DNA of 64,000 bases from Bdellovibrionales bacterium. Lineage in GTDB: Bacteria > Bdellovibrionota > Bdellovibrionia > Bdellovibrionales > UBA1609. The position numbers were made by a program, and so were the translations under genes. The notes below the pieces were generated by a model. That model was not told the DNA's origin and searched no databases. It was given only the letters and a program-made list of their open reading frames with translations. Positions 89 through 56,246 of this stretch are shown piece after piece. The DNA is taken from contig CBDHDF010000007.1 in assembly GCA_965261545.1 (NCBI GenBank), positions 320,001-384,000 of the forward strand, in the 5' to 3' direction. Numbering within the stretch: position 1 is the first letter of the stretch; the number at the start of each line of letters is the position of its first letter.

Positions 89-2518
89 ATGGAATATTTT
101 ATAGCCCTAAGCCTAATGCAATGCGCTAAATTGATGGGAAGTTTTGCAATGGGCCTTGGTGCCCTTAGGAGAAACTCTGGGTTTTCTCTTATTTCTATGA
201 TGATAGCGACTTCTATTATGGGATTTTCCATGTCTGCTCTGGTTTCATTGATGGTTCGTCAGGAAAAGGGAGGAGTGGATTTAGGTCACAGGTTCGACAA
301 TGCTCGCTTACAGCAAAGTCTTTTGAGTGCGATGATGAATTCTGAAATATGCACTTGTCATTTTGTCGTCGATTCAGGTTCTACAGTGACTTTAGATACA
401 CAGGGGTTAGGGGATATTCCAATGGGCTTTGTTCGAAGTAGCTGTGATTTTTCATCCCAAGATAATATTCTTGTGGAGGCGGGAGTTCATGTGCCTGGAA
501 GCAGCGCCTTAATGGTGGAAAACATCAAGGTGACAGATATTAAATTCACGGGGACAGCCGACAGGTATTCAGGAAATCTCAGTGTGGAATACAACCAAGA
601 AAGCTTGCCCTATCCCATGGGGACTTTTTTTATTCCCCTTGTTTTAATAGTGGATTCAGAATTAGGCACAGGTGTGGCGCATCCTATTGAATCTTGCTGG
701 AACTCTGAATCACAGGGTGAGGAAAGTCCTTGGAGTGAGGTCAATAATGGGAATGGTGGGGGAGGAGGAGGTAGCACCAATGATGGGAGTGAGGCTGAAA
801 GTGCCAGCGGATTTTATAATGCTTGCATGCTTATGGACTTCTCTTCAGATGAGGATAGAGATGGACGAACTTTAGTGGGTTGCGGGGGCACTGCAAATAT
901 TTTTCGCCCCCCCCATAGCACGGCTTTTGGGTTTGGCGCGGGGTTACTCTCCGGGAGTGGAGACAATACTTATTTGGGTTATAGTGCTGGGGGAGAGCAT
1001 ATAGGAAATCAAAGTACTTTTGTGGGCTACCGTGCGGGGCAGAGGGCTGGGAATGCCTCGGCAAATACGGCCATTGGTTATGATGCTGGAAGGTATGCCC
1101 AAGGGGGGAGACAGGTTTTTGTGGGAGCTTGGGCCGGGGAAAGTGAGGAGGGGGCCATTGGAGAGGAAAATGTTTTTGTGGGAATGGGGGCTGGTCAACG
1201 CAACAGGAACGGAAGTAGAAATGTCGCCTTTGGTTTAAAAGCAGGAGCTAATAATAATGATGCCAATGATAATGTGATATTGGGTCATTATGCTTTGCAA
1301 ACGACCAATGAAGGTTTCAATGTCGTTGTAGGTTACGAGGCTGGTTCAAATTTTACAAAGAACAATCAAGTTTTCTTAGGTTATCAGGCCGGTAAATACA
1401 TAAGCACAGGGGATAGAAATATTTTTGTAGGTGCTTTTTCAGGAGGAGATAGCTCTGTGACAGGAGAGGATAATGTCTTTATGGGCTATAAGACGGGCCA
1501 CTATAATCGAGGTTCTAGAAATGTTTTTCTAGGGGAATCTACAGGGTATGGAAAGAGTGGCTTTGAAGCCCAAGAAAATACATTTGCGGGATATGGGACA
1601 GGTTTTTTAGGAGAGAACTTAAATACAAACACAGTGGTGGGTGAAGAGGCCGGGCAGTATCTGATAAATGCGGACAGTAATGTGTTGGTGGGTCGAAGGG
1701 CGGCTTATAAAGCATCCGTTGGCCACAGGAACGTGGTGCTAGGTGAGAGAGCTTTGGAGTACAGTGCTTCTTTAAAAGATGACAGTATTTATATAGGACG
1801 AAAGTTAGGTGGTGGGTCTTCCAGTGCCTCACTGCAATCATCAGAACTTATTTTAGGGGTGGAAGCTGAAGAGTGGAGATGGTTGACAGGGGATATTTCT
1901 TCAACGGGCAATCTCTATCTCAACGGTCAGCAAGTGGCTCTCACAAGCTCCAGAGAACTAAAGAAAAATATTCACCCTATAAAGAATATTAGAAAATATG
2001 TTAATAGTCTCATTCAAACGCCTTTGTTTATCTATCAGTATAAAGATAAGAATCTTCAACCTCAAAAAATTCGTATGGGATTTATATCTGAAGAACTTCC
2101 TGAGCACTTACAGATAAAGAAAAAAGGGAAACTTTCTCATCCCGACTGGCCAAGTATTTATGGTTCTTTTTGGGCGAGTATTCAATATATTTATGGTGTG
2201 CTGCAAAGGCTCGAAAAGACCTTTCCTTTGAGGGTAAAAAAAGTGATCGATGCAACAAGATATTTCCATGGTCAGCAAAATGGATTGATAGAAGATACAA
2301 TGGACTCAAGACAAGAACTTTTAAAAATGAAAAATCAACTCTCCCAGGCATCTCAAGAACTTGAGGCTGCCAAGAGAGAACTTATGGAATTAAAAACAAG
2401 CATAAGAGAAAAATGGAAAGACGTCGAAGAAAAGTTTCCTAGGTTGAAGAACTGGGCGGCATCTAGGTCGGAGTTTATATCTAAGCCTCTATTGGAACCT
2501 ATGTTTATTATGAATTGA
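89..2518 (+). CDS. Fibre/adhesin protein 1: prepilin-like N-terminus, Cys-containing domain, Gly-rich beta-repeats, C-terminal S74 intramolecular chaperone and coiled coil
   Basis: RRNSG/FSLISMMIA then a hydrophobic helix; CTCHF...RSSCDF; many N-x-F-V-G-Y-x-A-G repeats; SSRELKKNI (Ser...Lys+5), MGFISEELP, coiled-coil tail. True start may be a downstream ATG. Confidence 0.8.
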   Translation: MEYFIALSLMQCAKLMGSFAMGLGALRRNSGFSLISMMIATSIMGFSMSALVSLMVRQEKGGVDLGHRFDNARLQQSLLSAMMNSEICTCHFVVDSGSTVTLDTQGLGDIPMGFVRSSCDFSSQDNILVEAGVHVPGSSALMVENIKVTDIKFTGTADRYSGNLSVEYNQESLPYPMGTFFIPLVLIVDSELGTGVAHPIESCWNSESQGEESPWSEVNNGNGGGGGGSTNDGSEAESASGFYNACMLMDFSSDEDRDGRTLVGCGGTANIFRPPHSTAFGFGAGLLSGSGDNTYLGYSAGGEHIGNQSTFVGYRAGQRAGNASANTAIGYDAGRYAQGGRQVFVGAWAGESEEGAIGEENVFVGMGAGQRNRNGSRNVAFGLKAGANNNDANDNVILGHYALQTTNEGFNVVVGYEAGSNFTKNNQVFLGYQAGKYISTGDRNIFVGAFSGGDSSVTGEDNVFMGYKTGHYNRGSRNVFLGESTGYGKSGFEAQENTFAGYGTGFLGENLNTNTVVGEEAGQYLINADSNVLVGRRAAYKASVGHRNVVLGERALEYSASLKDDSIYIGRKLGGGSSSASLQSSELILGVEAEEWRWLTGDISSTGNLYLNGQQVALTSSRELKKNIHPIKNIRKYVNSLIQTPLFIYQYKDKNLQPQKIRMGFISEELPEHLQIKKKGKLSHPDWPSIYGSFWASIQYIYGVLQRLEKTFPLRVKKVIDATRYFHGQQNGLIEDTMDSRQELLKMKNQLSQASQELEAAKRELMELKTSIREKWKDVEEKFPRLKNWAASRSEFISKPLLEPMFIMN

Positions 2519-4815
2519 TGAGGTTATTCATGAATGGCTCTATGGAATGGAGCGTGATGAAACAGCGGAATATTTCGGGTTTATCTTCTCAAGGGGGAGT
2601 GACTCTTATATCTGCATTGGTCGCGGTGCTTGTGATCAGTATGGCCTCGCTTTCTTTGGTATCTATGCAAGTCTCTCAAAAAAAGCAATCCTTAGCTTTA
2701 AAGCAGAAGCTTGCCCATATTGGTTTGGGGGCTTTTATTACAAAGGTTTTTTACAGCGGTGTTTGCTCTTGTCACTTTCATGCTGAAATCAATACGGGGG
2801 CACCCGAGGGAAGTCTCTTTTTAGATACATCAAATACAGATGTGGCCAGCAGTATTCCTTTAGAATCCATAAGAACAGGTTGTGAATTTAGTGGTAACGA
2901 TAATGTGATTGTGAGGGCCAATGAGGAGGTGGTTCGTAGTGGGGGCCTTGTGGTGGGAGATATTATCGTTAAAGACCTCCTGGCGACAGGGTCTTCTGAT
3001 GTCTATTCTGGAAATCTTGTTGTTAGCTACACAGAGTCCAGTCAAAAGTTGCTTTTGGAGCCGATTTCTATACCTCTCGTTTTGTCCATTGACTCAAGCT
3101 TAGGCACTCCTGAAGCAAGGCCCATTCAATTTTGTTGGCAAGGTGAGGGCGACGTGGCTGTAGAGCAAGTCGACGGTGATGATGGTAATGGCAATGGTAG
3201 TGGAGAGATCGAGAGCGAGGATATGTCAGGGCTTGCCTGTGCCCATGTGACGGACGCCACAGGGACGGAGGATGATGGAAGCAGTCTTGTTGGCTGTAAG
3301 ACATCAGATGTGGTCACGGCTGAAAAGACGGCACTGGGCTTTGAGGCGGGGAGCAATGATGAGATCTACGGTAACAATACTTATTTGGGTTTTAAAGCTG
3401 GATCATCTATGGCTTTGGGGAAGGGAACTTTTTTAGGTTTTAGGGCGGGTGAGAATTTTAATGGTCAGTATAATACGATGGTTGGTTCTCTTTCTGGAAA
3501 TAGTTCTTGGAATATAACGTATGGGCATGTGCTTATAGGGATGGATGTGGGGAGGGGGCATAGCAGTAGCTATTACAGCCAGAATATTTTAATAGGAACC
3601 TATACAGGACAAAGCGCGGCGAGGCATGCTCTTTTTATTGGAAACGAAACCGGGCAACAAGCCGAAAAGGGGTTTATTATAGGCCACGGTGCGGGAGTAT
3701 CTTCTAGCACCAGTTCCTTGGATACCTTTGTAGGAAATGGGGTGGGAAAGAATAACCAATCTTTGGGGGGCAGTGTGGTGGTGGGTTATGAGGCTGCTAT
3801 GGGTGAAGAGGTGGCTCTTGGTATTGGGATCGGCCGATCTTCTGGAAAAGGGGGTATTCATAGGGCTTTCATGGTAGGTTTTGAGGCGGGGCAAAAAGGT
3901 GCGGGGAAATATGGCCTTTTCTTGGGAGGGCAAGCGGGCTCGAATCTTGAAAGTGGAGATTATAATAATTTTATTGGTTTCCAGGCGGGGTTTCAAAAGA
4001 CATCTGGGCATTCGAATACCTATGCGGGGGCCTTTTCGGGGCACAGTGACCAGAGTGCCACTGGAAATACTTGTGTAGGCTGGAGTTCTTGCTATGACAA
4101 TGAAACGGGGATAAATAACACCATTCTGGGGGCTCATGCTGGAAAGAGCCATCTTGGGTCCAACAATATATTTATTGGCAAAGGAGTGGGCTCTTTATCG
4201 TCTCATGCAAATCTTAATGCAACACTCATGGTGGGAACCGAGAGTCATCAAGAATGGCTGGTCGGAGAGATGTCATCCGTTTCAACCATGCTTTTAAATG
4301 GTAACCCCATAACCATTCAAAGCTCAAGAGCTTTGAAGAAAAATATATATCCTGTGAAGAATCTTAAAAAATATTTTCAATGGATGTTGGAAACTCCCCT
4401 ATTTACTTACCAATACAAGGACCCAAAACTTCAACCTGATAAGATGCGTATGGGTATTATTTCTGAAGAACTTCCTGAGATTTTGCAAATCAAAAGAAAG
4501 GGTAAGTTCTCTCAGCCAGATTGGCCAAGTGTTTATGGAGTTTTTGCAGCCAGTATCAAATGGATTTATATCTCTACCATGAATTTGGAAGATAGCGTAT
4601 CCACCAAAATGGCGGACATCATGGGTTTGTTGACTTCCATTGAAAGGGATATTCGAGGTATAAGGCAAAAGCTTGATGAGTGGGTGAAGAATCCCTATGT
4701 GACGAAGAGGCATATAAAGCAATCCCAAGAGAAGATAAAGAAAATGAGGAGTGAGATAGCAAAGGCAGGCATAGATGTAGATAAGAAGTGGGAAGAACTT
4801 ATGGGTGAGCCATGA
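2515..4815 (+). CDS. Fibre/adhesin protein 2 (paralogue of 89..2518)
   Basis: QGG/VTLISALVAV; CSCHF...RTGCEF; Gly-rich repeats; SSRALKKNI, MGIISEELP, PDWPSVYG; overlaps both neighbours by 4 nt. Confidence 0.8.
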   Translation: MMRLFMNGSMEWSVMKQRNISGLSSQGGVTLISALVAVLVISMASLSLVSMQVSQKKQSLALKQKLAHIGLGAFITKVFYSGVCSCHFHAEINTGAPEGSLFLDTSNTDVASSIPLESIRTGCEFSGNDNVIVRANEEVVRSGGLVVGDIIVKDLLATGSSDVYSGNLVVSYTESSQKLLLEPISIPLVLSIDSSLGTPEARPIQFCWQGEGDVAVEQVDGDDGNGNGSGEIESEDMSGLACAHVTDATGTEDDGSSLVGCKTSDVVTAEKTALGFEAGSNDEIYGNNTYLGFKAGSSMALGKGTFLGFRAGENFNGQYNTMVGSLSGNSSWNITYGHVLIGMDVGRGHSSSYYSQNILIGTYTGQSAARHALFIGNETGQQAEKGFIIGHGAGVSSSTSSLDTFVGNGVGKNNQSLGGSVVVGYEAAMGEEVALGIGIGRSSGKGGIHRAFMVGFEAGQKGAGKYGLFLGGQAGSNLESGDYNNFIGFQAGFQKTSGHSNTYAGAFSGHSDQSATGNTCVGWSSCYDNETGINNTILGAHAGKSHLGSNNIFIGKGVGSLSSHANLNATLMVGTESHQEWLVGEMSSVSTMLLNGNPITIQSSRALKKNIYPVKNLKKYFQWMLETPLFTYQYKDPKLQPDKMRMGIISEELPEILQIKRKGKFSQPDWPSVYGVFAASIKWIYISTMNLEDSVSTKMADIMGLLTSIERDIRGIRQKLDEWVKNPYVTKRHIKQSQEKIKKMRSEIAKAGIDVDKKWEELMGEP

Positions 4816-7097
4816 TCACAGTGAAGAATATGTACTCTTTAGAGAATACGACTTTTGGTGGAAGTTATGGTTTTGCTATGCTGTCCATTATTTTGTCTAT
4901 TTCTATTATGAGTGTATCTATGTTGTCTTTTTTATCCAAGATCAATATAGGTACCAAAGAGGTCAAGCACTTATCTAAAAAAATCCAAAGACAGAATATT
5001 GAACTTGCTGTTGGGAAGCTTATGGATAGTGAAAAATGCACTTGTCACTTTGATCCAACACAAAATACAAATATTTCTTCCACATCACTTGGAATTAATA
5101 CGTCCACTTCAGAGGATATCCCACTGGGAGCTCTAAGGACAGGTTGTGATTTTAGCTTGACTAATAATATTTTGATTCAAGATGGAAGTTCCCTAGGGAA
5201 GGGTTTGGTGGTAGACAAGGTTAAGGTGTCAAATATTAGGTCAGAGGAGGGGAGCAGTGAAAATTTTTTGGGGGATCTTACTATTACTTATGCCAACGAA
5301 GGTCGCCCAGAGGCTTTTCGACCCTCTGTGATCCCTATAACTTTTTCTGTTGATTCTAGTTCAGGGTCGAGTGAAAATCGGCCGGTCAAAAATTGTGAGA
5401 GTTTGAGCAACCGTATGACGACACCACCAAGCTTTCCCTGTCACCTTGCGGATACGGAGGCTGGTGCCATGGATGATACAGAGTTGGGTAGCATGGCGGA
5501 GGGGCGAACTCTTTTAGGTTGTGGAGGAGCCGTGGATGAAAATCGCTCTGGATCGACAACATCCTTTGGATTTAGGGCTGGGAAGTCTTCGGCTTCGCAC
5601 ATGGGAAGTACTTATTTTGGGTATGAAGCTGGAATGACCCATAATAATATTTATAGCACGATGGTGGGCTATAGGGCGGGAAAGATGTCCATACACTTAA
5701 GACGTAGCAATCTCATTGGGTATCGAGCTGGAGAGAATACGAAGTGGGGTCAGAATTTTCATTTCATTGGAGCCGAGGCCGGTCTCAACACATTTACGAG
5801 AGTCAATAATATTTTTATAGGAGCTTCAGCAGGAAGGAACAATCGTCGAGGAATGTACAATATTTTCTTGGGCTATGAGGCCGGGCGAGATGGACCTGCT
5901 GCAGATGACAATATTTTTATAGGCTATAGGGCTGGGCTTTCAAATGTTGGATATCGGAATACCTTTATTGGATCTCAGGCGGGAGAGGCCAATACTTCAG
6001 GGGGAGACTCTGTGGTCATTGGTTATCGTGCTGGTTATGAAAATCCATTTATAAGCAAGAGTGTCCTTTTGGGAAGTTTTGCGGGGAGGGAGAGTGATGG
6101 AGGTCAGCACTCTGTGTTTGTAGGTTATTTGTCTGGGAGAAAGAACAGGGGTGATTACAATACATTTGTAGGAAACTATACTGGCACAAAGAATGTGGAG
6201 GGGTATGAGAATGTTTTTGTAGGGCACAGGGCTGGTGATTCTAATATCATTGGATCAAAAAATACATTTATTGGAGAATTGGGGGGAAGCAAGAACGAAT
6301 CAGGATCCTACAATACTTTTATAGGTCGGTGGGCGGGCTATAACAATATCACTGGAAGTTCGAACACCATGATTGGTTTTCAGGCGGGCTATTTAAATGA
6401 AGGAGGCAGCCATAACATATTTATCGGTACAGATGTGGGGGATATATCCTATGCCAACACAGACTCTAAATTTGTTATGGGCAATACATACACGAGAACT
6501 TGGGTTGAGGGAGACATGACTTCCACTGGAAATCTCTATGTCAATGACCAGCAAGTTGTGGTGACAAGTTCACGATTTTTGAAGAAGAATATTCGCCCTG
6601 TGACCCAATTTAGAAAATACTTGGATGACCTCTTAAAGACTTCTCTTTTTACATATCAATATAAAAGTTCTAGAAATCAACCCAACAAAACACGTATGGG
6701 GGTTATATCTGAAGAACTGCCTCAAAATTTAAAAATTCAAATGACAGAGGGGCTTCCCCATCCCGATTGGCCCACAGTCTACGGTTCTTTTTGGGCGAGT
6801 CTTAAGGCCCTCCATGGAATCAAGAAAGAATTGGAAGAACAATTTCTGTTAAAATATCAGGATTTTTTATTTAAGGTTCGATCCATAAAGAAGAAGCAGC
6901 TTCAGGTGAACGAAGTATGGATTCAGCACAAAAAAGAAATGTCTTCCATAAAGTCTCAATTTCGCCAGATTCATCGTGAAATGGAGCAAATTCAGAAAGA
7001 TATTTTAAAAACCAAAAATAAGTTTGACGAGGATTGGCAGGATTTAATAGCCAGACTTTCTAGGACTCCCTTGGATGGCTGCTGTGCTTCTGAATGA
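4812..7097 (+). CDS. Fibre/adhesin protein 3 (paralogue)
   Basis: SYG/FAMLSIILS; CTCHF...RTGCDF; NTFIG repeats; SSRFLKKNI, MGVISEELP, PDWPTVYG. Confidence 0.8.
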   Translation: MITVKNMYSLENTTFGGSYGFAMLSIILSISIMSVSMLSFLSKINIGTKEVKHLSKKIQRQNIELAVGKLMDSEKCTCHFDPTQNTNISSTSLGINTSTSEDIPLGALRTGCDFSLTNNILIQDGSSLGKGLVVDKVKVSNIRSEEGSSENFLGDLTITYANEGRPEAFRPSVIPITFSVDSSSGSSENRPVKNCESLSNRMTTPPSFPCHLADTEAGAMDDTELGSMAEGRTLLGCGGAVDENRSGSTTSFGFRAGKSSASHMGSTYFGYEAGMTHNNIYSTMVGYRAGKMSIHLRRSNLIGYRAGENTKWGQNFHFIGAEAGLNTFTRVNNIFIGASAGRNNRRGMYNIFLGYEAGRDGPAADDNIFIGYRAGLSNVGYRNTFIGSQAGEANTSGGDSVVIGYRAGYENPFISKSVLLGSFAGRESDGGQHSVFVGYLSGRKNRGDYNTFVGNYTGTKNVEGYENVFVGHRAGDSNIIGSKNTFIGELGGSKNESGSYNTFIGRWAGYNNITGSSNTMIGFQAGYLNEGGSHNIFIGTDVGDISYANTDSKFVMGNTYTRTWVEGDMTSTGNLYVNDQQVVVTSSRFLKKNIRPVTQFRKYLDDLLKTSLFTYQYKSSRNQPNKTRMGVISEELPQNLKIQMTEGLPHPDWPTVYGSFWASLKALHGIKKELEEQFLLKYQDFLFKVRSIKKKQLQVNEVWIQHKKEMSSIKSQFRQIHREMEQIQKDILKTKNKFDEDWQDLIARLSRTPLDGCCASE

Positions 7098-22609: not shown

Positions 22610-23391
22610 GTGAGCACAAGACACAGTTTACGAACAATGATACTATTTACGGTCCCGTTCAAAGTCGTCGCATGGGATGGAGCCTAGGAATCAATCTTTT
22701 AGGACACGAACATAAAGTTTGCTCTTATAACTGTCCCTACTGTGAATTGGGAGAAAGTAAACTTCGCCTGAATCAAGTGGGGCGAACGATCAAATTTCAT
22801 CCCCCCGAGGTTATCAATGATCGATTTGTAAAAAAACTCTCTGATATCCAGCTCTCACCTCATCCCATAGAATCCATATGCAATTCAGGTTATGGTGAAC
22901 CCACCTTGTATCATCCTTTTAAAGAGGTGAGTGAAATGATCTACCATTCACGGAACGAAATTATGGGAAATGCTAAACTCCATCTCCTTACAAATGGAGC
23001 TCATTTTGATCAAAAAAAGGTTCTTGCAAGTCTTCCCTACTATGATTTTATTCATGTAAAGTTTGATGCGGGAGACGATCAAATTTTAAAACAGATCAAT
23101 GCTCCCCTTGTTCGGACCAATATCAACAAAATTCTCCACCAACTCCGAAGTATCGATCATTTAATTCTACAATCTATGTTTGTGACAGGGAGTGTGGACA
23201 ATACCACAAACGCTGCTGTTGAGTCTTGGATGGAGGCTGTGGGCATTGTTCAACCCCAGGTGGTTCATCTTTACACCCTAGATAGAAAGCCCACAGACGC
23301 CACTATTCTCAAGGTGGACGAAGACATCCTCGATATTATTGGAACGAAGCTTCGGCGCAAGACTCAAATAGAGTATCATGTGTTTTACTAA
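22606..23391 (+). CDS. Radical SAM protein
   Basis: IYGPVQSRRMGWSLGINL, CSYNCPYC (CxxxCxxC), SGYGEPTL; ATG at 22606 overlaps the upstream TGA. Confidence 0.9.
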   Translation: MSEHKTQFTNNDTIYGPVQSRRMGWSLGINLLGHEHKVCSYNCPYCELGESKLRLNQVGRTIKFHPPEVINDRFVKKLSDIQLSPHPIESICNSGYGEPTLYHPFKEVSEMIYHSRNEIMGNAKLHLLTNGAHFDQKKVLASLPYYDFIHVKFDAGDDQILKQINAPLVRTNINKILHQLRSIDHLILQSMFVTGSVDNTTNAAVESWMEAVGIVQPQVVHLYTLDRKPTDATILKVDEDILDIIGTKLRRKTQIEYHVFY

Positions 23392-23398
23392 AATTCTT
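23391..23398. repeat. 8-bp target-site duplication AAATTCTT, left copy (partner 31653-31660), bounding the IS110/IS66 nest
   Basis: AAATTCTT directly precedes GTAAC at 23399 and directly follows GTTAC at 31652; 8 bp is the usual IS66 TSD length. Confidence 0.9.
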
Positions 23399-23596
23399 GT
23401 AACATTCATGGGGGCGCCTTGCTTCCCCACCCACGCCCATGAATCTTTCTAGGCCCCCACTTCTTTGCACGAAGCAACTCGGTGGACAGCTTCGCTGGTC
23501 TATATAATTGGCCTCTTTTAGTTACTCTGGACTTTTGATGGTATTTTTGTCATGTATGATTCCGATACAATAAAGGATAAAGCAATAACATTATTG

Positions 23597-23783
23597 GAAG
23601 GTGATAAGATGAGTGGCCGTTGAATAGATTGGTAATTTTAATTCCGTGAAGTAACATGGTCTTGAGCTTTGGATCGAACCCACGCATGTACCTGCACTCT
23701 GAGTGTATGGACGTATAGTAAGTTGACCTATTTTCGCTTTAGAATTTATGGCAAAATCCCAAGGCTCTAGTTTTATCACCTTC
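23597..23783 (+). ncRNA. Predicted IS110 bridge/seek-type guide RNA (also at 25301-25487 and, reversed, in copy 3)
   Basis: Outer stem GAAGGTGATAA/TTATCACCTTC followed by a T-run; loop closed by GGCCGT/ATGGTC carrying TGAATAG and GTAAC (target match); second domain closed by GAGCTTTGGAT/ATCCCAAGGCTC carrying TGAGTGT and ATAGTAA (donor match). Confidence 0.7.
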
Positions 23784-23811
23784 TTTTTTTCTAACAGAAA
23801 GGAGGAGTCAT

Positions 23812-25014
23812 GTGGATATTATTTATAGTTCTGTTTGTGGAATAGATGTTCATCAACATATGTTGATGTGTACGATTGTCAAAGTGGAAGACGGTAAGAA
23901 GAAGTTTTTCACAAAAGAGTTCAAGAATTTTCCAAAAAATTTTCCTAGAATGCGCTCTTGGATGAAGCCACATAAGGTTGAGAGAGTTCTTTTTGAGAGC
24001 ACAGGGATTTATTGGAATTCTTTATACGATGATTTGACAGAAAAAGGTTATGAAGTAGATGTTATCAATGCCTTTCATGTCAAAAATATTACTGGTAAAA
24101 AAACTGACGTGTTGGATAGCCAGTGGATTGCAGAGCTTGGTGCTTGTGGTCTTCTAAGAGCTAGCTTCATTCCTCCACGTGAGATTCGTTCTATTAGACT
24201 TTTGGCTCGTTATCGTACAAAAACGATCCGCCAAATATCTTCGGAACAAAATCGTATGTATAAGGTTCTTGAATATTCAGGCATTCGTTTAACCTATGCA
24301 ATGTCTAAAGCTGACTGCGTATCTGGTATGGCCATGATTCGTGCCATAGCTAATGGAGAGAGATCAGTTTCTAAATTGATGTCTCTTGCCAGAGGGTCTT
24401 TACGTCAAAAGACCGAAGAATTTTCTTACGCCCTGTCGGGAAAGATGACGGAAGAAAATCGTTTTGTTCTTCAACGCATTCTTGATCGAATAGATTTTTT
24501 GAAAAAAGAATGCTCTCAAATTGAAGAAGAACTTTTCATTCGTATGAAACCCTATGAAAGGCAGTGGCATCTACTCCAGACTATACCTGGAATTGACGAA
24601 TTAAGTGCAGCGCTTTTGATTGCAGAAATAGGAGGCAATGTGAAGTCTTTTAAAAATAAAGGAAATTTTTGCTCCTGGATGGGGATTTGCCCATCCAATA
24701 ATGAGAGCGCAGGAAAAAAAAAGTCTTCACGAACGAGGAAAGCGAACACATATGTGAAATCGTTGGTATGTGAGATGGCCAATAGTGCTATTAAGACGAA
24801 TTCACAATTCAAAGGCAAATACCAATCACTTGTTATAAGGCGTGGGCACAAGAGATCAGTGATTGCCGTTGGTCACAAAATGATGGGAGTTGTTTATTCA
24901 GTCATAAGTAATGACACCCCCTACAAAGACCCTGGAATTGACTATGAAAAGCTCATGGTGAAAAAAAATGCACCAAGGTGGATTAGAGCGTTAAAAAAGT
25001 ATGATTTCATGTAA
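23812..25014 (+). CDS. IS110-family DEDD recombinase/transposase
   Basis: GIDVH, FESTG, KKTDVLDS (DEDD); TIPGI; NESAGK catalytic-Ser region; RBS AGGAGG. Confidence 0.95.
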   Translation: MDIIYSSVCGIDVHQHMLMCTIVKVEDGKKKFFTKEFKNFPKNFPRMRSWMKPHKVERVLFESTGIYWNSLYDDLTEKGYEVDVINAFHVKNITGKKTDVLDSQWIAELGACGLLRASFIPPREIRSIRLLARYRTKTIRQISSEQNRMYKVLEYSGIRLTYAMSKADCVSGMAMIRAIANGERSVSKLMSLARGSLRQKTEEFSYALSGKMTEENRFVLQRILDRIDFLKKECSQIEEELFIRMKPYERQWHLLQTIPGIDELSAALLIAEIGGNVKSFKNKGNFCSWMGICPSNNESAGKKKSSRTRKANTYVKSLVCEMANSAIKTNSQFKGKYQSLVIRRGHKRSVIAVGHKMMGVVYSVISNDTPYKDPGIDYEKLMVKKNAPRWIRALKKYDFM

Positions 25015-25102
25015 TGTAGGATGATTTAAAAACTCGGACATTTGAAAAAATTCGAAGAACGGATAGTGGATTCGTGCGTCCAAACTACCCCGGAGATTCA
25101 TA

Positions 25103-26806
25103 GTAACATTCATGGGGGCGCCTTGCTTCCCCACCCACGCCCATGAATCTTTCTAGGCCCCCACTTCTTTGCACGAAGCAACTCGGTGGACAGCTTCGCT
25201 GGTCTATATAATTGGCCTCTTTTAGTTACTCTGGACTTTTGATGGTATTTTTGTCATGTATGATTCCGATACAATAAAGGATAAAGCAATAACATTATTG
25301 GAAGGTGATAAGATGAGTGGCCGTTGAATAGATTGGTAATTTTAATTCCGTGAAGTAACATGGTCTTGAGCTTTGGATCGAACCCACGCATGTACCTGCA
25401 CTCTGAGTGTATGGACGTATAGTAAGTTGACCTATTTTCGCTTTAGAATTTATGGCAAAATCCCAAGGCTCTAGTTTTATCACCTTCTTTTTTTCTAACA
25501 GAAAGGAGGAGTCATGTGGATATTATTTATAGTTCTGTTTGTGGAATAGATGTTCATCAACATATGTTGATGTGTACGATTGTCAAAGTGGAAGACGGTA
25601 AGAAGAAGTTTTTCACAAAAGAGTTCAAGAATTTTCCAAAAAATTTTCCTAGAATGCGCTCTTGGATGAAGCCACATAAGGTTGAGAGAGTTCTTTTTGA
25701 GAGCACAGGGATTTATTGGAATTCTTTATACGATGATTTGACAGAAAAAGGTTATGAAGTAGATGTTATCAATGCCTTTCATGTCAAAAATATTACTGGT
25801 AAAAAAACTGACGTGTTGGATAGCCAGTGGATTGCAGAGCTTGGTGCTTGTGGTCTTCTAAGAGCTAGCTTCATTCCTCCACGTGAGATTCGTTCTATTA
25901 GACTTTTGGCTCGTTATCGTACAAAAACGATCCGCCAAATATCTTCGGAACAAAATCGTATGTATAAGGTTCTTGAATATTCAGGCATTCGTTTAACCTA
26001 TGCAATGTCTAAAGCTGACTGCGTATCTGGTATGGCCATGATTCGTGCCATAGCTAATGGAGAGAGATCAGTTTCTAAATTGATGTCTCTTGCCAGAGGG
26101 TCTTTACGTCAAAAGACCGAAGAATTTTCTTACGCCCTGTCGGGAAAGATGACGGAAGAAAATCGTTTTGTTCTTCAACGCATTCTTGATCGAATAGATT
26201 TTTTGAAAAAAGAATGCTCTCAAATTGAAGAAGAACTTTTCATTCGTATGAAACCCTATGAAAGGCAGTGGCATCTACTCCAGACTATACCTGGAATTGA
26301 CGAATTAAGTGCAGCGCTTTTGATTGCAGAAATAGGAGGCAATGTGAAATCTTTTAAAAATAAAGGAAATTTTTGCTCCTGGATGGGGATTTGCCCATCC
26401 AATAATGAGAGCGCAGGAAAAAAAAAGTCTTCACGAACGAGGAAAGCGAACACATATGTGAAATCGTTGGTATGTGAGATGGCCAATAGTGCTATTAAGA
26501 CGAATTCACAATTCAAAGGCAAATACCAATCACTTGTTATAAGGCGTGGGCACAAGAGATCAGTGATTGCCGTTGGTCACAAAATGATGGGAGTTGTTTA
26601 TTCAGTCATAAGTAATGACACCCCCTACAAAGACCCTGGAATTGACTATGAAAAGCTCATGGTGAAAAAAAATGCACCAAGGTGGATTAGAGCGTTAAAA
26701 AAGTATGATTTCATGTAATGTAGGATGATTTAAAAACTCGGACATTTGAAAAAATTCGAAGAACGGATAGTGGATTCGTGCGTCCAAACTACCCCGGAGA
26801 TTCATA
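25103..26806 (+). mobile_element. IS110-family element, copy 2 (head-to-tail with copy 1)
   Basis: Junction GGAGATTCATA-GTAAC-ATTCATGGGGG at about 25092-25118; ends abutting the IS66 left TIR. Confidence 0.95.
25516..26718 (+). CDS. IS110-family recombinase/transposase (same protein as 23812..25014)
   Basis: Same 400-aa sequence. Confidence 0.95.
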   Translation: MDIIYSSVCGIDVHQHMLMCTIVKVEDGKKKFFTKEFKNFPKNFPRMRSWMKPHKVERVLFESTGIYWNSLYDDLTEKGYEVDVINAFHVKNITGKKTDVLDSQWIAELGACGLLRASFIPPREIRSIRLLARYRTKTIRQISSEQNRMYKVLEYSGIRLTYAMSKADCVSGMAMIRAIANGERSVSKLMSLARGSLRQKTEEFSYALSGKMTEENRFVLQRILDRIDFLKKECSQIEEELFIRMKPYERQWHLLQTIPGIDELSAALLIAEIGGNVKSFKNKGNFCSWMGICPSNNESAGKKKSSRTRKANTYVKSLVCEMANSAIKTNSQFKGKYQSLVIRRGHKRSVIAVGHKMMGVVYSVISNDTPYKDPGIDYEKLMVKKNAPRWIRALKKYDFM

Positions 26807-28521
26807 GTAACTATTCAGGGGGTGCCGCATTAATTCGAACAATTTTTTTAAAAAAAGTATAAAAATTCTTGACAAGTTTTTGAAGCAAACGACCTCTTTC
26901 ATTTGTTCTTTATCGAATATGTTCCTGCATATGGCTTAAACTCTCTGAGAGCCATAGTATTGAAAGATTGTGAAACATAGGTCGCGGGGGGCACTTCTCA
27001 TTCCTTTTGCTTCTTAGAACGAATCCTAGTGCATTTTTTTTAATGAAAAAAAGGCATGTTAATATTTTCATAAGGTAAGTATGAAAATAGAAAATATTGA
27101 CGTGTCTTCAGCCATAAATAAAATCAGGAAGCTTCTTAAGAAAGAGAAGTCCCTTTCTCCCGCTTTTATTGTGGCCATTGAGTTGTTGATCAAAATCATC
27201 ACTATTCTAGTAAATCAAAAAAAATTAAATAGTCAAAACAGTAGTATTGCCCCTTCTCAAGATCCGAATGGCCCTAAAAAGAAACCTAAGGAAGAAACTG
27301 GTAAGAAGCCAGGAGGACAACCCGGACACGAAGGAGCTACTTTAAAACCCGTGGATACTCCAGACAAGGTGGAGTTCATTTCTATTAATAAAGAGGAACT
27401 TCCTCCAGGTGATTACATTTCTTCTGGAGTTGAAAAGCGTCAAGTATTTGAGGTAGACCTTTCTGTGCATGTCACGGAGTATCAAGGAGAAATCCTCGAA
27501 GACCAAGATGGGAATCAGTGGGTTGCAGGTTTTCCAGAAGGAATCAATAACCCAACTCAATATGGCCCTTCTGTGAAAGCTCACTCAGTTTATATGTCCC
27601 AGTTTCAGTTAATCCCTCATCTTCGAGTCGCAAGTTACTTTAATCAATGGGGTCTATCGCTTGCTGGATCTACGGTACACAATTTTAACAAATCTGCCTT
27701 TGAGGCTCTGGAAGCTTTTGAGGAGTGGGCAAAGGAAACTCTTCTGAACTCACCTTTGATTCATGCTGACGAAACTGGAGTGAATGTTAATGGGAAGAGG
27801 CTGTGGTTTCACCTCTTGTCCAATGATACTGTGGTTCTCTATCAGGTGGACGAAAAAAGAGGCGCAGAGGCTATGGATCGCATGGGAATTCTTCCAAAAT
27901 ACACAGGGATTGTTTGTCATGACCATTGGAAACCTTATTATACATATACTTCCTGCATTCATGCCCTTTGCAATGCGCACCATTTAAGGGAGCTTCAAAG
28001 AGCTTGGGAGCAAGATGATCAAAAATGGGCAAAAGAAATGAAGTCTCTTTTAGAGACAATAAACAAAGAGGTGCACGATACGCAGAACCAATGCCTTTCA
28101 CAAGACCGAATTGAATATTACAAAGAGAAATATCGAAATATTCTCTTCGAAGGGGAAAAGGAATCTCCATTAATGGAGAGGACAGAGAAAAAAAAGAAGG
28201 GAAAGGTTAAACAATCCAAATCTAGAAATTTACTAGATCGACTGAGAAACTTTGAAGATGATACCTTGCTATTTATGAAGGACCCCATAGTTCCATTTAC
28301 GAATAATATAGCAGAAAATGATCTGAGAATGACCAAAGTTCAGCAGAAAATATCTGGGTGCTTTCGTTCGTTGATGGGAGCCAAGACATTTTGTAGAAAC
28401 CGAAGCTTTCTCCTGACTTGCCAGAAAAATGGCATAGAACCTAAAGATGCTCTAAATATGCTATTTCAAGGAAAACTTCCCTCATTTATGACTCGAATTC
28501 GCCCACCCCCTGAATAGTTAC
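26807..28521 (+). mobile_element. IS66-family element (single-ORF, ISBst12-like), 1715 bp
   Basis: TIRs GTAACTATTCAGGGGGTG / CACCCCCTGAATAGTTAC; 8-bp TSD displaced outward by the IS110 insertions. Confidence 0.93.
27081..28517 (+). CDS. IS66-family transposase TnpC
   Basis: NSQNSSIAPSQD, GGQPGHEG, HADETG, HDHWKPY, CNAHHLREL, FTNNIAENDLRMTKVQQKISGCFRS. Confidence 0.95.
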   Translation: MKIENIDVSSAINKIRKLLKKEKSLSPAFIVAIELLIKIITILVNQKKLNSQNSSIAPSQDPNGPKKKPKEETGKKPGGQPGHEGATLKPVDTPDKVEFISINKEELPPGDYISSGVEKRQVFEVDLSVHVTEYQGEILEDQDGNQWVAGFPEGINNPTQYGPSVKAHSVYMSQFQLIPHLRVASYFNQWGLSLAGSTVHNFNKSAFEALEAFEEWAKETLLNSPLIHADETGVNVNGKRLWFHLLSNDTVVLYQVDEKRGAEAMDRMGILPKYTGIVCHDHWKPYYTYTSCIHALCNAHHLRELQRAWEQDDQKWAKEMKSLLETINKEVHDTQNQCLSQDRIEYYKEKYRNILFEGEKESPLMERTEKKKKGKVKQSKSRNLLDRLRNFEDDTLLFMKDPIVPFTNNIAENDLRMTKVQQKISGCFRSLMGAKTFCRNRSFLLTCQKNGIEPKDALNMLFQGKLPSFMTRIRPPPE

Positions 28522-29051
28522 TATGAATCTCCGGGGTAGTTTGGACGCACGAATCCACTATCCGTTCTTCGAATTTTTTCAAATGTCCGAGTTTTTAAAT
28601 CATCCTACATTACATGAAATCATACTTTTTTAACGCTCTAATCCACCTTGGTGCATTTTTTTTCACCATGAGCTTTTCATAGTCAATTCCAGGGTCTTTG
28701 TAGGGGGTGTCATTACTTATGACTGAATAAACAACTCCCATCATTTTGTGACCAACGGCAATCACTGATCTCTTGTGCCCACGCCTTATAACAAGTGATT
28801 GGTATTTGCCTTTGAATTGTGAATTCGTCTTAATAGCACTATTGGCCATCTCACATACCAACGATTTCACATATGTGTTCGCTTTCCTCGTTCGTGAAGA
28901 CTTTTTTTTTCCTGCGCTCTCATTATTGGATGGGCAAATCCCCATCCAGGAGCAAAAATTTCCTTTATTTTTAAAAGACTTCACATTGCCTCCTATTTCT
29001 GCAATCAAAAGCGCTGCACTTAATTCGTCAATTCCAGGTATAGTCTGGAGT

Positions 29052-30468
29052 CAATGCCGTTTCCTTAAGAAAAATCTCTTGAAATTATTAGATAAATCGA
29101 CAAGAATAAGACTTGTTTTATTTTACACCCAACCCTCAACCAAGGAGTAAGTCACATGCAATCCAATATTGATCTCGAAAGCCCCCAAATGACGAGTTCG
29201 CGTCACAGATGACCATTTTATTCTACCAAAACTTGATTCTTCCTTCAAGCCAGAGCACCTTGTCGATCCAGAAAAACAAAAAAGGAATCGAAAATTTAAT
29301 CCTCAAATTTTCTTTTTTACCATTATCTATCTTATTTCAGGAACAAATTACGAAGGCTACCAAATCGCTCTTAAGACGGTATGGACTCATTTTGGTGACC
29401 TGCTTCTCATGCCAGTCAAAAGCAGTCTCAGCAAGATACGTCAAAGTATTTCTTACCTATTTTTCAAAGATATCTTTGAATCTCTGATTACAGACTACGA
29501 ACCATTGAGAAAAACGTTTCATGGTTTTTATATCTATGCCATAGATGGCGACCAATTAGCACTTCCTCGCTCTAAAGATCTTTTAAAGGAGGGTTATTGT
29601 GGGTACCCTTGCCCAAATGAGATGGAAACTCATTTCTTACGTATGTATCTATCTCATGCTTATGACGTTTTATCGGGTGTGACAAAGAATCTTTGCTTTT
29701 CTCCCGCTCTCAACGAAATCGCCAATGCTATTCAAATGATAGGTAGTTTTGAGAGTAATAGCATAACTCTCTACGATAGGCTTTATTTATCTACAGAGAT
29801 TATTAAGGCCCATGCTCAAGCCAGTAACTTCTTTATTGCGCGTTGTAAGCGAGGCTCTACTTTTATCCCCATCGTAAATTTATTTAATGGCCCAGGTTGG
29901 TATTCACAAATGGTTATTGAGGGGGTGGTCATTCATCTCTATAAGTATAAAAACCCAAAGACTGGGGAGTTCTCTGTTTTGGCCACTAATCTTCCGCATG
30001 GCTCCTTGGACAAGAAGGATATGGTTGCTCTTTACTCTCGTCGTTGGGAAATAGAAACGACATTTCGTGATTTTACATCGACAATGAAAATGGAGCAGTG
30101 GCACTCAACAAGCCTTAATGGAATATTGCAAGAGCTGTATTCTTATTTTTGGCTCTTCAATTATACAAAGATTCAAATGAGCATAAATGAGGATGAAGAC
30201 AGTGTGAATCAGTTGGTAAAAAATGACTACAAAAAACCTAACTTTAAACTGATTCTTGATTTCATAATGGATAGCATCCCCCTTTTTGTTGCGGGGCTCT
30301 ATCAGAAATTTAGGAAGCAGATAAAGTTGCTGATGAAGATTTCAATGGAGAAGAGGAGGCACTTCAAAAGAAGCTATGAAAGGTCTATCAAAAGGGCTGG
30401 GAGTTCTTTTAAAAGAAATAGCTTAACGCAGAGGCAGAGGGGTGTGGTGGCTTAAGGAAACGGCATTG
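29052..30468 (+). mobile_element. IS4-family element A, copy 1
   Basis: 18-bp TIR CAATGCCGTTTCCTTAAG; 10-bp TSD AGTCTGGAGT (29042-29051, 30469-30478). Confidence 0.93.
29409..30455 (+). CDS. IS4-family DDE transposase (5' part appears frameshifted; likely start 29156)
   Basis: AIDG, YDRLY, Y..RWEIE..FR..(YREK-like); frame is open from 29193, while the RBS and ATG at 29156 are in another frame. Confidence 0.88.
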   Translation: MPVKSSLSKIRQSISYLFFKDIFESLITDYEPLRKTFHGFYIYAIDGDQLALPRSKDLLKEGYCGYPCPNEMETHFLRMYLSHAYDVLSGVTKNLCFSPALNEIANAIQMIGSFESNSITLYDRLYLSTEIIKAHAQASNFFIARCKRGSTFIPIVNLFNGPGWYSQMVIEGVVIHLYKYKNPKTGEFSVLATNLPHGSLDKKDMVALYSRRWEIETTFRDFTSTMKMEQWHSTSLNGILQELYSYFWLFNYTKIQMSINEDEDSVNQLVKNDYKKPNFKLILDFIMDSIPLFVAGLYQKFRKQIKLLMKISMEKRRHFKRSYERSIKRAGSSFKRNSLTQRQRGVVA

Positions 30469-31652
30469 AGTCTGGAGTAGATGCCACTGCCTTTCATAGG
30501 GTTTCATACGAATGAAAAGTTCTTCTTCAATTTGAGAGCATTCTTTTTTCAAAAAATCTATTCGATCAAGAATGCGTTGAAGAACAAAACGATTTTCTTC
30601 CGTCATCTTTCCCGACAGGGCGTAAGAAAATTCTTCGGTCTTTTGACGTAAAGACCCTCTGGCAAGAGACATCAATTTAGAAACTGATCTCTCTCCATTA
30701 GCTATGGCACGAATCATGGCCATACCAGATACGCAGTCAGCTTTAGACATTGCATAGGTTAAACGAATGCCTGAATATTCAAGAACCTTATACATACGAT
30801 TTTGTTCCGAAGATATTTGGCGGATCGTTTTTGTACGATAACGAGCCAAAAGTCTAATAGAACGAATCTCACGTGGAGGAATGAAGCTAGCTCTTAGAAG
30901 ACCACAAGCACCAAGCTCTGCAATCCACTGGCTATCCAACACGTCAGTTTTTTTACCAGTAATATTTTTGACATGAAAGGCATTGATAACATCTACTTCA
31001 TAACCTTTTTCTGTCAAATCATCGTATAAAGAATTCCAATAAATCCCTGTGCTCTCAAAAAGAACTCTCTCAACCTTATGTGGCTTCATCCAAGAGCGCA
31101 TTCTAGGAAAATTTTTTGGAAAATTCTTGAACTCTTTTGTGAAAAACTTCTTCTTACCGTCTTCCACTTTGACAATCGTACACATCAACATATGTTGATG
31201 AACATCTATTCCACAAACAGAACTATAAATAATATCCACATGACTCCTCCTTTCTGTTAGAAAAAAAGAAGGTGATAAAACTAGAGCCTTGGGATTTTGC
31301 CATAAATTCTAAAGCGAAAATAGGTCAACTTACTATACGTCCATACACTCAGAGTGCAGGTACATGCGTGGGTTCGATCCAAAGCTCAAGACCATGTTAC
31401 TTCACGGAATTAAAATTACCAATCTATTCAACGGCCACTCATCTTATCACCTTCCAATAATGTTATTGCTTTATCCTTTATTGTATCGGAATCATACATG
31501 ACAAAAATACCATCAAAAGTCCAGAGTAACTAAAAGAGGCCAATTATATAGACCAGCGAAGCTGTCCACCGAGTTGCTTCGTGCAAAGAAGTGGGGGCCT
31601 AGAAAGATTCATGGGCGTGGGTGGGGAAGCAAGGCGCCCCCATGAATGTTAC

Positions 31653-31660
31653 AAATTCTT
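31653..31660. repeat. 8-bp target-site duplication AAATTCTT, right copy
   Basis: Direct repeat of 23391-23398. Confidence 0.9.
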
Positions 31661-47899: not shown

Positions 47900-48025
47900 A
47901 AGAATAAAAAACCACGAACACCTATGCACAGCTACCAAGTAAGCAAAGCCACCAGACAACCTTATAAAAGTAATATCAGTAGCCCACACTTGGTTGGGGG
48001 AGCAGATATTAAGCCCCTTAAGTAG

Positions 48026-50579
48026 CAATGGCATTCGTTTTTGCAGAAGATTTTTCCACATTTTTCTGACTCCCTCTAACATACTGAGTTAAGGGGGCTT
48101 TTATCTTTTTTCTTTTTCCGAAAAAAAATACTTGAGTCCACCCCATCGTTGTGTCACATTATATTTGAACCATTCCCAAAGGGGAGAGACTCAAATGGAC
48201 CCACGCATAGAGACATTGCCTTCAACAACTTTTTTTGGAAGACGCTTGACGCGCAAGCAAATTGCCGACATTCAAAAGACGGTGGCGCTATTTCCTTCTT
48301 TAAGTCGCCGTGAACTGGGTTATACAGTTTGTGAGCATCTTGGTTGGCTAACTCCCAAAGGTGATCATCGCATCCAATCGTGCCTTCGTATGCTTGAGAC
48401 GCTAGAGGAACTTGACATTCTATCCCTGCCAGAAAAAGACATGTCAAAGCGGAGTGTCCCCTCCAAAAAAATCACTTGGACACACCGAACAGATGAAAAG
48501 CCTCTCATCAACGATAAACTAGACTCATTGACCCCACTTTCTTTGCAAATCGTAACTGATCAAGAGGCCATTAAGGAATGGAATGAAGTTGTCGATCGGC
48601 ATCATTATCTCAATTACAGACGTCCCTTTGGTCCCCACTTACGCTATTTCATCTTAGATAATTGTGGGCGAAGATTGGGTTGTCTTTTATTTGAAGCTGG
48701 CACATCCACGTTGCCTTGCCGTGATGAATGGATCGGTTGGCAAAATCGAGCTTACAAAAAGCACTTGAATTTAGTGGTGAACAATAGTCGATTTTTGATC
48801 TTTCCCTGGGTAAAGGTTCGCCATCTTGCTTCGATGGCTTTATCTATGGCAACTCGCCAACTTCCCACAGACTGGGAGTTAAAACATGCTTTCAAACCTG
48901 TACTCATGGAGACTTTTGTCGACCTTACCAAATTTAATGCCACGAGCTATCGTGCTGCCAACTGGCTTTATTTGGGCAAAACAAATGGGAGTCGTGCCTA
49001 CAAAAATGTAAAGGGAAAAACTCAAAAAGGTGTTTATGTTCAACCTCTGACAAAGAATTATCAGTCTATCTTATTGAATGGCCCCCAATGCGCTATCAAG
49101 AAACCCGTCGGGAAACCCACCATCAAGCCACATAAGAACTTGGCTGAGCCTATGCTAGAGGACTCTTTTGTGCATCTTTGGCAAAACATCATCAAGACAG
49201 TGGTTATCATTGCAGATGAGTACGACCGAACCTGGCAAAAGCGTCAACGTGTCTTGAATACATTGTTGATTATACTTTTCATCTTCCGACTTGTTTTCTC
49301 TAAAGGAAAACAAGGTTATGATACAACTTTGATTGAACTTTGGGAGCAGTGTCGCATATTAGACATTGAACTCCCTCAACCTAAACCAGTTCGGGCATCC
49401 ACTATGTGTAGTGCACGGGCTAAAGTAGATGAAAATATATTTAAAGTTTTGCATGATGAAATTCTTAAACAAGACGGTATATCCAATTCTAGTACCTTAT
49501 GGAAGGGCCATAAGGTTTTCGCAGTGGATGGATCGAAAATAAATTTACCACGTCAACTCGTAGATAATGGGTATCAGCAACCATGGGAAAAAGCATGGTA
49601 CCCTCAAGGTCTTGTCAGTTGCCTGTACCAACTACAGTCGAAGATTCCTGTGGATTTTGATCTCTTTGCCCATAACAATGAGAGAAAGGCTGCACAAACT
49701 CATTTCAAAAAATTGTTTGAAAACGATGTTGTGGTTTATGATCGTGGCTATTATTCCTACGAAATGCTTCATGAGCATAAGGTGCGAAGTCTGCATGCGG
49801 TGTTTAGGATAAGGAGAAATGCCAACACTGTTTTTGATGAATTTATTAATAATGATCAAAAAGACTCAGTGATCCAAGTCATTTCTAGCAAGCAAATTCT
49901 GAAAGAACTACATAAAAAAAAGCCACAAGACGACTTCAAAGCCTACGCTTTGCGTTTGGTCAAATATAAAATTGGACAAACTACTTTTGTTCTAGGAACA
50001 ACCTTAATGGATCAAAAAAAATATTCCATTGATGATCTGGCCAATCTCTATCATGGACGCTGGAGTATAGAGGAACTGTACAAAATATCCAAAGAACTGA
50101 TGACCATTGAAGAGTTTCATTCTCAAAGTGAAAGGGGAGTCAAACAAGAATTGTTTGCACACTTCACACTTATCACTCTGACAAGATTATTTTCCAACTA
50201 CACGGAAGACCGTCTTAATACATCTCAATCCCATAGTAAAAAACAAACCATGCAGACAAACTTTAAAAACAATTTACTGACAATTGCAAGAAATATTGAA
50301 GGTCTTTTTCTTCAACAAAAGGTAGTGCTTAGTAAAACCCTCAATTGCATCATTACAAATATGAAGACCTGCCGACAAAGGCTACGTCCGAATAGGCATT
50401 ACGACCGAGTTTCTAGAAAACCCATCGGAGTATGGAGACCCAGTAAAGAGGTTAGGGGGGCTATGGCCAACGGATAATCACATGGATCAAAGAAAAAAAC
50501 TTGGGGTTAGCCCACCCCCGAGGAGTTAGAGGTTCAAATCCTTAACCGAATGGGATCTCTCACTAAACGAATGCCATTG
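48026..50579 (+). mobile_element. IS4-family element C, copy 1 (2554 bp)
   Basis: TIR CAATGGCATTCGTTT; 10-bp TSD CCTTAAGTAG (48016-48025, 50580-50589). Confidence 0.93.
48195..50477 (+). CDS. DUF4338 (DruA-like) domain fused to an IS4 DDE transposase
   Basis: N-half: SRRELG..CEHLGW, HHYL, RDEWIGW, NNSRFLIFPWV..LAS, ETFVD, YRAANW.YLGKT.G; C-half: AVDGS, YDRGY, YHGRWSIEELYK; ATG 48195 follows RBS AGGGGAG. Confidence 0.88.
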   Translation: MDPRIETLPSTTFFGRRLTRKQIADIQKTVALFPSLSRRELGYTVCEHLGWLTPKGDHRIQSCLRMLETLEELDILSLPEKDMSKRSVPSKKITWTHRTDEKPLINDKLDSLTPLSLQIVTDQEAIKEWNEVVDRHHYLNYRRPFGPHLRYFILDNCGRRLGCLLFEAGTSTLPCRDEWIGWQNRAYKKHLNLVVNNSRFLIFPWVKVRHLASMALSMATRQLPTDWELKHAFKPVLMETFVDLTKFNATSYRAANWLYLGKTNGSRAYKNVKGKTQKGVYVQPLTKNYQSILLNGPQCAIKKPVGKPTIKPHKNLAEPMLEDSFVHLWQNIIKTVVIIADEYDRTWQKRQRVLNTLLIILFIFRLVFSKGKQGYDTTLIELWEQCRILDIELPQPKPVRASTMCSARAKVDENIFKVLHDEILKQDGISNSSTLWKGHKVFAVDGSKINLPRQLVDNGYQQPWEKAWYPQGLVSCLYQLQSKIPVDFDLFAHNNERKAAQTHFKKLFENDVVVYDRGYYSYEMLHEHKVRSLHAVFRIRRNANTVFDEFINNDQKDSVIQVISSKQILKELHKKKPQDDFKAYALRLVKYKIGQTTFVLGTTLMDQKKYSIDDLANLYHGRWSIEELYKISKELMTIEEFHSQSERGVKQELFAHFTLITLTRLFSNYTEDRLNTSQSHSKKQTMQTNFKNNLLTIARNIEGLFLQQKVVLSKTLNCIITNMKTCRQRLRPNRHYDRVSRKPIGVWRPSKEVRGAMANG

Positions 50580-50979
50580 CCTTAAGTAGGTAGTTCCTGT
50601 CCAGGGAAGAAAGTTAAGTAGTTTTAAGTATTTACATGCCTTCCCTTTAGATTTTATGCTTTAAAATGGAGTCCATCAAACATAATCCGTGTAAATTCAG
50701 TTACTTACATAAAACGGAAAAATAAAATAAGTTCCCCCCCCCTCTCTTGACGAACCTTTCACAGCCCCTCCCTTTCAGTGACTTATGTGGCTATCAACTG
50801 GTTACTTGATATGAGAGGAAGAGTTGGATCAACCTGTGTTTCCACCGTGGTGATTTCAAACCTCCTTCAGGGAAATAACATTACGTTGCGCATCAACTTC
50901 AAAAAATACTTGACGTGTTTTTTCAGAGAAATAATTTTTGATATTTTATTCTTCATTTATTTTTTATGTAGGTTTTAGG

Positions 50980-53607: not shown

Positions 53608-53623
53608 TATCCCCTCCTATGAG

Positions 53624-56177: not shown

Positions 56178-56246
56178 CTCCTATGAGGGGCTTTTTACCC
56201 GCTGCGGTGTAACTTAGCAACCAGTCTGTTTTTGGGGTCCACTATA

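Follow-up and report, generated by a model that had tools for sequence, protein, structure and literature searches.

Insertion into the terminal repeat of another mobile element is already known in kind. IS4321 and IS5075, of the IS1111 group, reportedly insert in the terminal repeats of Tn21-family elements. When Tn10 undergoes nearly precise excision, the DNA between short repeats is deleted, and about 50 bp can stay behind between the two copies of the target site duplication (TSD).

Within the IS110 family, guide-directed insertion has been established for IS621 (PMC11208160) and ISEc21 (PMC11187229). The IS1111 group is characterized by a non-coding region downstream of the gene and by subterminal repeats of 11-13 bp that lie 7 and 3 bases from the ends (PMC11187229). 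ISPpu9, an IS110-family element of Pseudomonas putida, carries a left-end box of about 43 bp that resembles its REP target downstream of the 2-base core; box and target contain the same palindrome, mutation of which did not stop the formation of circles, and non-autonomous modules with the same ends as well as circles at nearby wrong cores have been described (PMC12288879). For another IS110, tandem repeats are described as by-products (bioRxiv 10.1101/2025.10.25.684509).

Here we describe an IS110 element inserted in both terminal inverted repeats (TIR) of an IS66 element. The window, by which we mean the whole stretch of 64,000 nucleotides that was analysed, comes from a Bdellovibrionales bacterium (contig CBDHDF010000007.1, positions 320,001 to 384,000). 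As with IS4321 and IS5075, a DEDD recombinase element occupies a fixed base in the terminal repeat of another element. Unlike in those cases, the target is the IS66 TIR, two bases from its tip, and the IS110 has an upstream non-coding region and rebuilds a full TIR on its inner side. As in composite transposons such as Tn10, long inverted IS copies surround a core; unlike in Tn10, the flanking element does not encode the transposase that would read the outer ends.

The predicted bridge RNA resembles that of IS621 in lying upstream of the gene and in having target and donor guides, a 2-base core and a handshake, again with no target duplication (PMC11208160, PMC11208158). It differs from what is described for IS621 in that the guide pairing with the top strand is 5' of the other, the order that PMC11187229 gives for IS1111-type RNAs, and in having the partner of the inverted repeat about 36 bases inside the left end. 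The left end resembles the element's own target beyond the core, as does that of ISPpu9, whose described target (REP), core (AG) and box sequence are different. The sequence resembled here, unlike that of ISPpu9, is the binding site of another transposase, so a function of the likeness is testable. A literature search with most subscription journals outside its coverage returned no report of IS110 in IS66 ends or of TIR mimicry.

Results and discussion

The block spans 8,254 bp (23399-31652), is bounded on both sides by 8-bp AAATTCTT repeats and contains two tandem IS110, one IS66 and one inverted IS110 split by an IS4-like element. Its features are as follows.

23391-23398, + strand: left 8-bp target duplication AAATTCTT, of IS66 type (empty IS66 copies also make 8-bp duplications)
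23399-23418, + strand: left outer mimic end, made of the GT of the IS66 TIR, the AA core and the IS110 left end
23401-25106, + strand: IS110 copy A, core to core, with transposase ORF 23812-25014 (400 aa)
25105-26810, + strand: IS110 copy B, in tandem, with ORF 25516-26718
26807-28521, + strand: single-ORF IS66 with both TIRs rebuilt, transposase ORF 27081-28517 (478 aa)
26807-26826: IS66 left TIR
28518-31650, - strand: IS110 copy C in the IS66 right TIR, interrupted by the IS4-like element
29052-30468, + strand: IS4-like element, ORF 29409-30455 (PF01609)
31633-31652, - strand: right outer mimic end, made of the left end of IS110 copy C and the GT of the TIR
31653-31660, + strand: right copy of the 8-bp target duplication

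The first-pass annotation had read this region as an IS110-IS66-IS110 composite of 8.25 kb. The size and the 8-bp TSD stand, and the content has to be extended to three IS110 copies plus the IS4-like element, which is itself bordered by a 10-bp duplication (29042-29051 and 30469-30478). Copies A and B repeat with a period of 1,704, and the right end of copy B provides the GT that rebuilds the IS66 left TIR.

The IS66 element has GTAA termini, an 8-bp duplication and a transposase matching PF03050 (DDE_Tnp_IS66, E=1.6e-49) plus DUF6444, as is typical of its family; of the 5 empty IS66 copies whose two ends are both present, 4 show a perfect 8-bp TSD. The other transposase matches PF01548 (E=4.8e-23) and PF02371 (E=4e-21), the DEDD RuvC-like and Transposase_20 domains. 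Together with a short core without target duplication and a non-coding end with matching guides, these domains place the element in the IS110 family, and its insertions into its own gene have no duplication beyond TAAC. We rejected membership of the IS1111 group: the non-coding region is upstream of the gene (413 bp, with 88 bp downstream) and not downstream, and the repeat is placed differently, being 8-9 bp long, 3 bases from the right core and about 36 bases into the left end.

The rest of the window has repeats of other kinds. A dense nest of other insertion sequences covers 42172-64000. Two inverted 2,560-bp copies (48021-50580 and 53623-56182) encode a 781-aa protein, which we take to be a fusion ending in an IS4-like transposase, and an IS21-like pair lies at 60069-62836. 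At 900-6900 a repeat occurs in three related copies spaced by about 2.3 kb; they contain short internal repeats and are probably paralogous repeat-protein genes.

The left non-coding region of the IS110 has the following features.

23404-23446, + strand: left-end box shared with relatives (TCATG, hairpin, CACCC, ATGAA)
23620-23629, + strand: predicted 5' guide of the target-binding loop, TTGAATAG-AT
23647-23656, + strand: predicted 3' guide of the target-binding loop (TGAAGT, core AA, handshake CA), read by eye
23715-23721, + strand: predicted donor-loop guide ATAGTAA, matching the right end plus core

Aligning this left end with those of 14 relatives (15 elements) reveals a conserved RNA, and the putative guide sits in a variable loop of the aligned predicted structure. 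In the first variable loop, TTGAATAG can pair with TIR bases 5-12, one of the pairs being G-U, and TGAAGT-AA-CA in the second loop matches the GT, the core and the two bases that open the left end. The loops of relatives match their own flanks in the same way (for example L096, L110, L047 and L017), with L016 and L095 as cases in this alignment where the first loop does not match its own flank. The two bases after the core track, by eye, the left end of each relative, and in this they are like the handshake bases described for IS621 (PMC11208158). Both at 23620-23656 of the window and in loci L015-L110 the guide that would pair with the top strand comes first, as in IS1111-type RNAs, though the RNA is upstream of the gene.

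The guide 8-mer by itself turns up in 60 of 2,000 shuffles, so what speaks for the guide is where it lies and which sites are occupied. A single-sequence fold of the IS110 non-coding region was unremarkable (z -0.39), and Rfam gave no match to it, with 2 weak ones far below threshold. At the ends of the element, ATGAATCT (23439-23446) is the inverted repeat of AGATTCAT in the right end (25094-25101), and this end repeat covaries in a mini element. A 65-bp stretch of the left non-coding region (23481-23545) is about 95% identical in many copies of a different genomic repeat, and falls within a segment that is absent from relatives.

We compiled 37 IS110 right-end junctions over the whole genome: 15 abut an IS66 TIR, 10 a tandem left end, and 12 are elsewhere. 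AA is common to all 37, which identifies the crossover core as the AA of GT-AA-C. Many of the 12 other junctions fall inside IS110 itself, and the guide is paired at 7 of 8 positions in 4 of them. The GTAACTATTCAG sites are occupied by IS110 in 15 of 33 cases, and related IS66-type ends in 0 of 13, 0 of 20, 0 of 11, 0 of 2 and 1 of 4. Judged from these patterns, the predicted guide would direct IS110 to the IS66 TIR. Since the IS110 right end finishes in GT, each insertion leaves a full TIR on its inner side, and this accounts for the tandem IS110 arrays as well. On our own reading of the variants, occupancy is 8 of 9 copies for IS66 variant 128C and 3 of 8 for the other variant. A plasmid search gave 11 plasmid records with the IS66 protein.

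Host flanks gave no sign of selection by the 3' guide, the mean match being 1.48 at 25 outer ends and 1.39 at 18 empty TIRs (p=0.95); relatives, unlike the host flanks here, match about 3 flank bases. This indifference fits either a guide that needs GT only or movement as a unit.

Some IS110 copies are organized in more elaborate ways. At G000:C7:121212-128203 and G000:C7:263185-270026, four to five IS110 are arrayed at one IS66 TIR, including copies inserted in IS110's own gene and right end. At G000:C7:226760-232573 and C7:311413-314881, tandem IS110 units include host DNA from the left flank (47-344 bp) and stop at near-target AA sites; IS110 appears to duplicate adjacent DNA there. The IS4-like element is also found in the G/C-run of the IS66 right TIR (G000:C7:119783 and C7:121212; C6:289773; C11:896707).

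We searched for relatives at several levels. With the queries used, no close IS110 relative was found among 390 genomes of the class (E<=1e-90) or 401 of the phylum (E<=1e-100), and 201 genomes of the order contained 5 distant matches (32-36%). A single-protein scan of genome contigs gave 12 pattern matches with no relative among them, and transposases 65-80% identical (P0002-P0007, P0015) are known here as proteins only, without DNA. Upstream DNA was long enough in 125 relative loci, and 56 of these (43 distinct) have the left-end box, as counted by a pattern that itself required CAYG and missed 69 loci. The right ends of relatives also end in GGT-AA or GGC-AA. Of 165 relative loci, a single one has an IS66 gene close by, and the IS110 of that locus appears to lie within the IS66 gene.

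We consider it likely that the block was built stepwise under RNA guidance, a mechanism that we place at the center of our reading and that was absent from the first-pass interpretation. IS66 would have inserted first, producing the 8-bp duplication; given RNA-guided targeting of the TIR, the TSD likely preceded the IS110 copies. An IS110 whose bridge RNA spells the IS66 terminus would then have recombined at the AA of GT-AA-C in each TIR, in place and in separate events, twice on the left. With each complete TIR restored inside by the GT of the right end, the IS66 would still be mobile and could be targeted again. The outer end would be TIR-like through the retained GT, the AA core, a next base that is commonly shared and the TCATG motif of the subfamily, and TnpC would probably use it rarely or never. 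Points against the stepwise reading are the strong residual likeness of the mimic end, three TSD-bearing hairpins, an occupancy test on 14 copies that leans towards double occupancy, few and reshuffled-looking haplotype sites, the occupancy excess of 128C, flanks that ignore the 3' guide and the occurrence of the 8-mer in shuffles.

The letters of 23399-23418 and of the IS66 left TIR are exactly as the first-pass annotation gave them, and the alignment that it reported holds, with 14 of 20 positions identical without gaps (1-5, 8, 12-16 and 18-20). Identity with the right TIR is 12 of 20. For the 15 bases after GTAAC, a gapped alignment to the TIR scores 11, which is reached by 19 of 50,000 random genome 15-mers and by 3 of 50,000 when TCATG is fixed; the top score among the 43 relatives is 9. 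On these scores, from a post hoc test taking the best of three TIR variants, the likeness to the TIR exceeds chance.

Much of this likeness has an ordinary origin. The GT is the TIR's own, the AA is the core, and the IS110 part consists of C-AT-TCATG and the 5' arm of a hairpin. Donor and target agree in the base after the core at 16 of 19 relative loci (copies of one element make up 6 of these), and TCATG is the left-end motif of relatives that do not target IS66. Because core-N3-TCATG is typical of such relatives, those parts are not adaptations to IS66. What is left is the G-run and GCC, a residual likeness that at the level of the letters is real though picked after the fact: GGGG follows CATG in 0 of 43 relatives, and the donor scores 12 of 16 against its own target here, compared to 3-7 in the 19 relative loci. 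The G-run and GCC are probably a patch taken from the target, as seems so for ISPpu9, or are partly due to chance. The earlier suggestion that the end was captured from a TIR can thus hold for the G-run and GCC, and is excluded for core-N3-TCATG as a left-end feature of relatives.

One alternative is that the end has no special history, being the sum of the TIR's own bases, the core, the family motif and, by chance, a G-rich hairpin arm pairing with the C-run of the family. Hairpin arms do vary freely among relatives, relative L005 has three further G after CATG yet is not at a TIR, the old remnants and other TIRs diverge past the G-run, and the comparison itself was picked post hoc. We nonetheless regard this explanation as unlikely, given how rarely random sequences with TCATG fixed reach the score and that ISPpu9 has the same kind of likeness to a different target.

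Another alternative, which the first-pass annotation had put forward, is that TnpC mobilizes the whole IS110-IS66 unit. TnpC would accept the outer mimic ends, such units and mini elements would move as IS66-type elements, and the G-run would be kept by selection. Consistent with this, mimic positions 1-5 and 12-16 agree in register with both TIRs, older remnants with a 4-base spacer bring TCA into register, and the host flanks ignore the 3' guide. The current end, however, breaks conserved positions. In 26 IS66-type ends (16 from this genome, with 4 of the other 10 being doubtful calls) the conserved block is GTAAC-T-R-N-T-C, with T at position 6 in 22, a purine at 7 in all 26, T at 9 in 20 and C at 10 in 23. 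The mimic agrees with GTAAC at 1-5 and departs from T-R-N-T-C at 6-10, having A, T, C and A at positions 6, 7, 9 and 10, bases found in 2, 0, 3 and 2 of the 26 ends. The perfect TIRs rebuilt inside would also compete.

The recurrence of composites bears on both readings. The first-pass annotation had proposed looking for the same composite at other loci with new TSDs, and double-occupied IS66 units with different TSDs are found at 4 loci, namely this block, G000:C7:211537-216661 and two rearranged ones on C7, as movement by TnpC would have it. An 8-bp TSD accompanies IS66 copies whether none, one or both of their ends are occupied; as empty and single-occupied copies have it too, recurrence does not discriminate between the readings. 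The 14 IS66 copies with both ends known comprise 5 empty, 1 occupied on the left only, 4 on the right only and 4 on both (the pairing is our own, and three copies were joined across rearrangements by TSD). Occupancy of the two ends is consistent with independence (Fisher p=0.30, n=14), with 4 double occupancies seen versus 2.9 expected, a lean towards both ends. TSD-bounded IS110 pairs without IS66 inside, also proposed as a sign of hitchhiking, did not appear among 23 unpaired ends, where scattered near-matches were the most that we saw, none convincing.

Module haplotypes argue against movement as a unit, no two composites being alike, at variant sites that are few and look reshuffled. We tried the IS4-like insertion at IS110 base 1175-1184 as a private mark; it recurs at other loci, and was rejected because both orientations occur. 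The composite-circle joint expected from TnpC was seen in none of the contigs of 4 runs (at most 2 samples). Contigs drop rare forms, so this absence is no evidence, and tandem junctions mask circle junctions in contigs. The single strand-change joint in the run contigs is IS110 in the right TIR. An old IS66 left end (G000:C6:298118) bears a left-end-type tip, as hitchhiking would allow. It shows that the two similar 20-mers can recombine. No TSD partner was found for this chimeric end, which speaks against hitchhiking.

Also in favor of mobilization is a set of three 44-51-bp hairpins with mimic ends on both sides and perfect 8-bp TSDs (G000:C2:618569, C6:99928 and C10:204619), which make up half of the 6 cases of this kind found in 356 short GTAAC-GTTAC pairs. 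They may be MITEs moved by TnpC. Read from their structure, they can equally be scars of a double-occupied unit deleted between CCCATGAAT within one left end and its counterpart in the other, inverted end, a deletion that would leave the old duplication in place. The three are unlike one another in end variant or in break point, and we saw none of them at another site, which favors deletion scars. All considered, we think it quite unlikely that TnpC moves the unit. The broader idea that IS110 elements aimed at repeats use their own left end to restore a working copy of the target, here one that TnpC reads, seems to us similarly improbable.

Seven further mimic-ended hairpin copies belong to a larger repeated unit with the same flanks (G000:C2:345412-383719), also present in run X5 of a second study. 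In addition, a non-coding mini-IS110 of about 106 bp, made of the left-end box, an AT-rich hairpin and the right end, is located at G000:C11:725851-725961, with further sites at C10:576454, C2:233511, C2:289133, C3:20865 and C6:3544. These are inserted at TIR-like sites, show a compensatory change in the end repeat and recall the ssr9 modules of ISPpu9.

Finally, the likeness could serve IS110 itself or partly restore target function without transposition (TnpC binding 12-20 without cutting, for example, or an IS110 circle being brought near TIRs), which would suit the presence of 12-16 in both TIRs of this IS66 and its absence from other IS66 lineages and has a precedent in ISPpu9, where the likeness has no known role (PMC12288879), but is very unlikely given that the RNA guide already accounts for targeting.

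Conclusions

This genome offers a well-populated natural case of a bridge recombinase that targets the tip of IS66; insertions on target, near target and into the element itself occur side by side. The RNA predicted for this subfamily combines the guide order of the IS1111 type with an upstream position. The element is also a second case, after ISPpu9, of an IS110 left end that resembles its target, and because the target is a transposase site, the reason for the likeness is directly testable. If TnpC uses the mimic end, transposon parasitism would take a form here that we did not find in the literature searched. An RNA-guided element would then home to the tips of another transposon and become its new outer ends, and the 44-51-bp hairpins with 8-bp duplications would be mobile offspring of that system.
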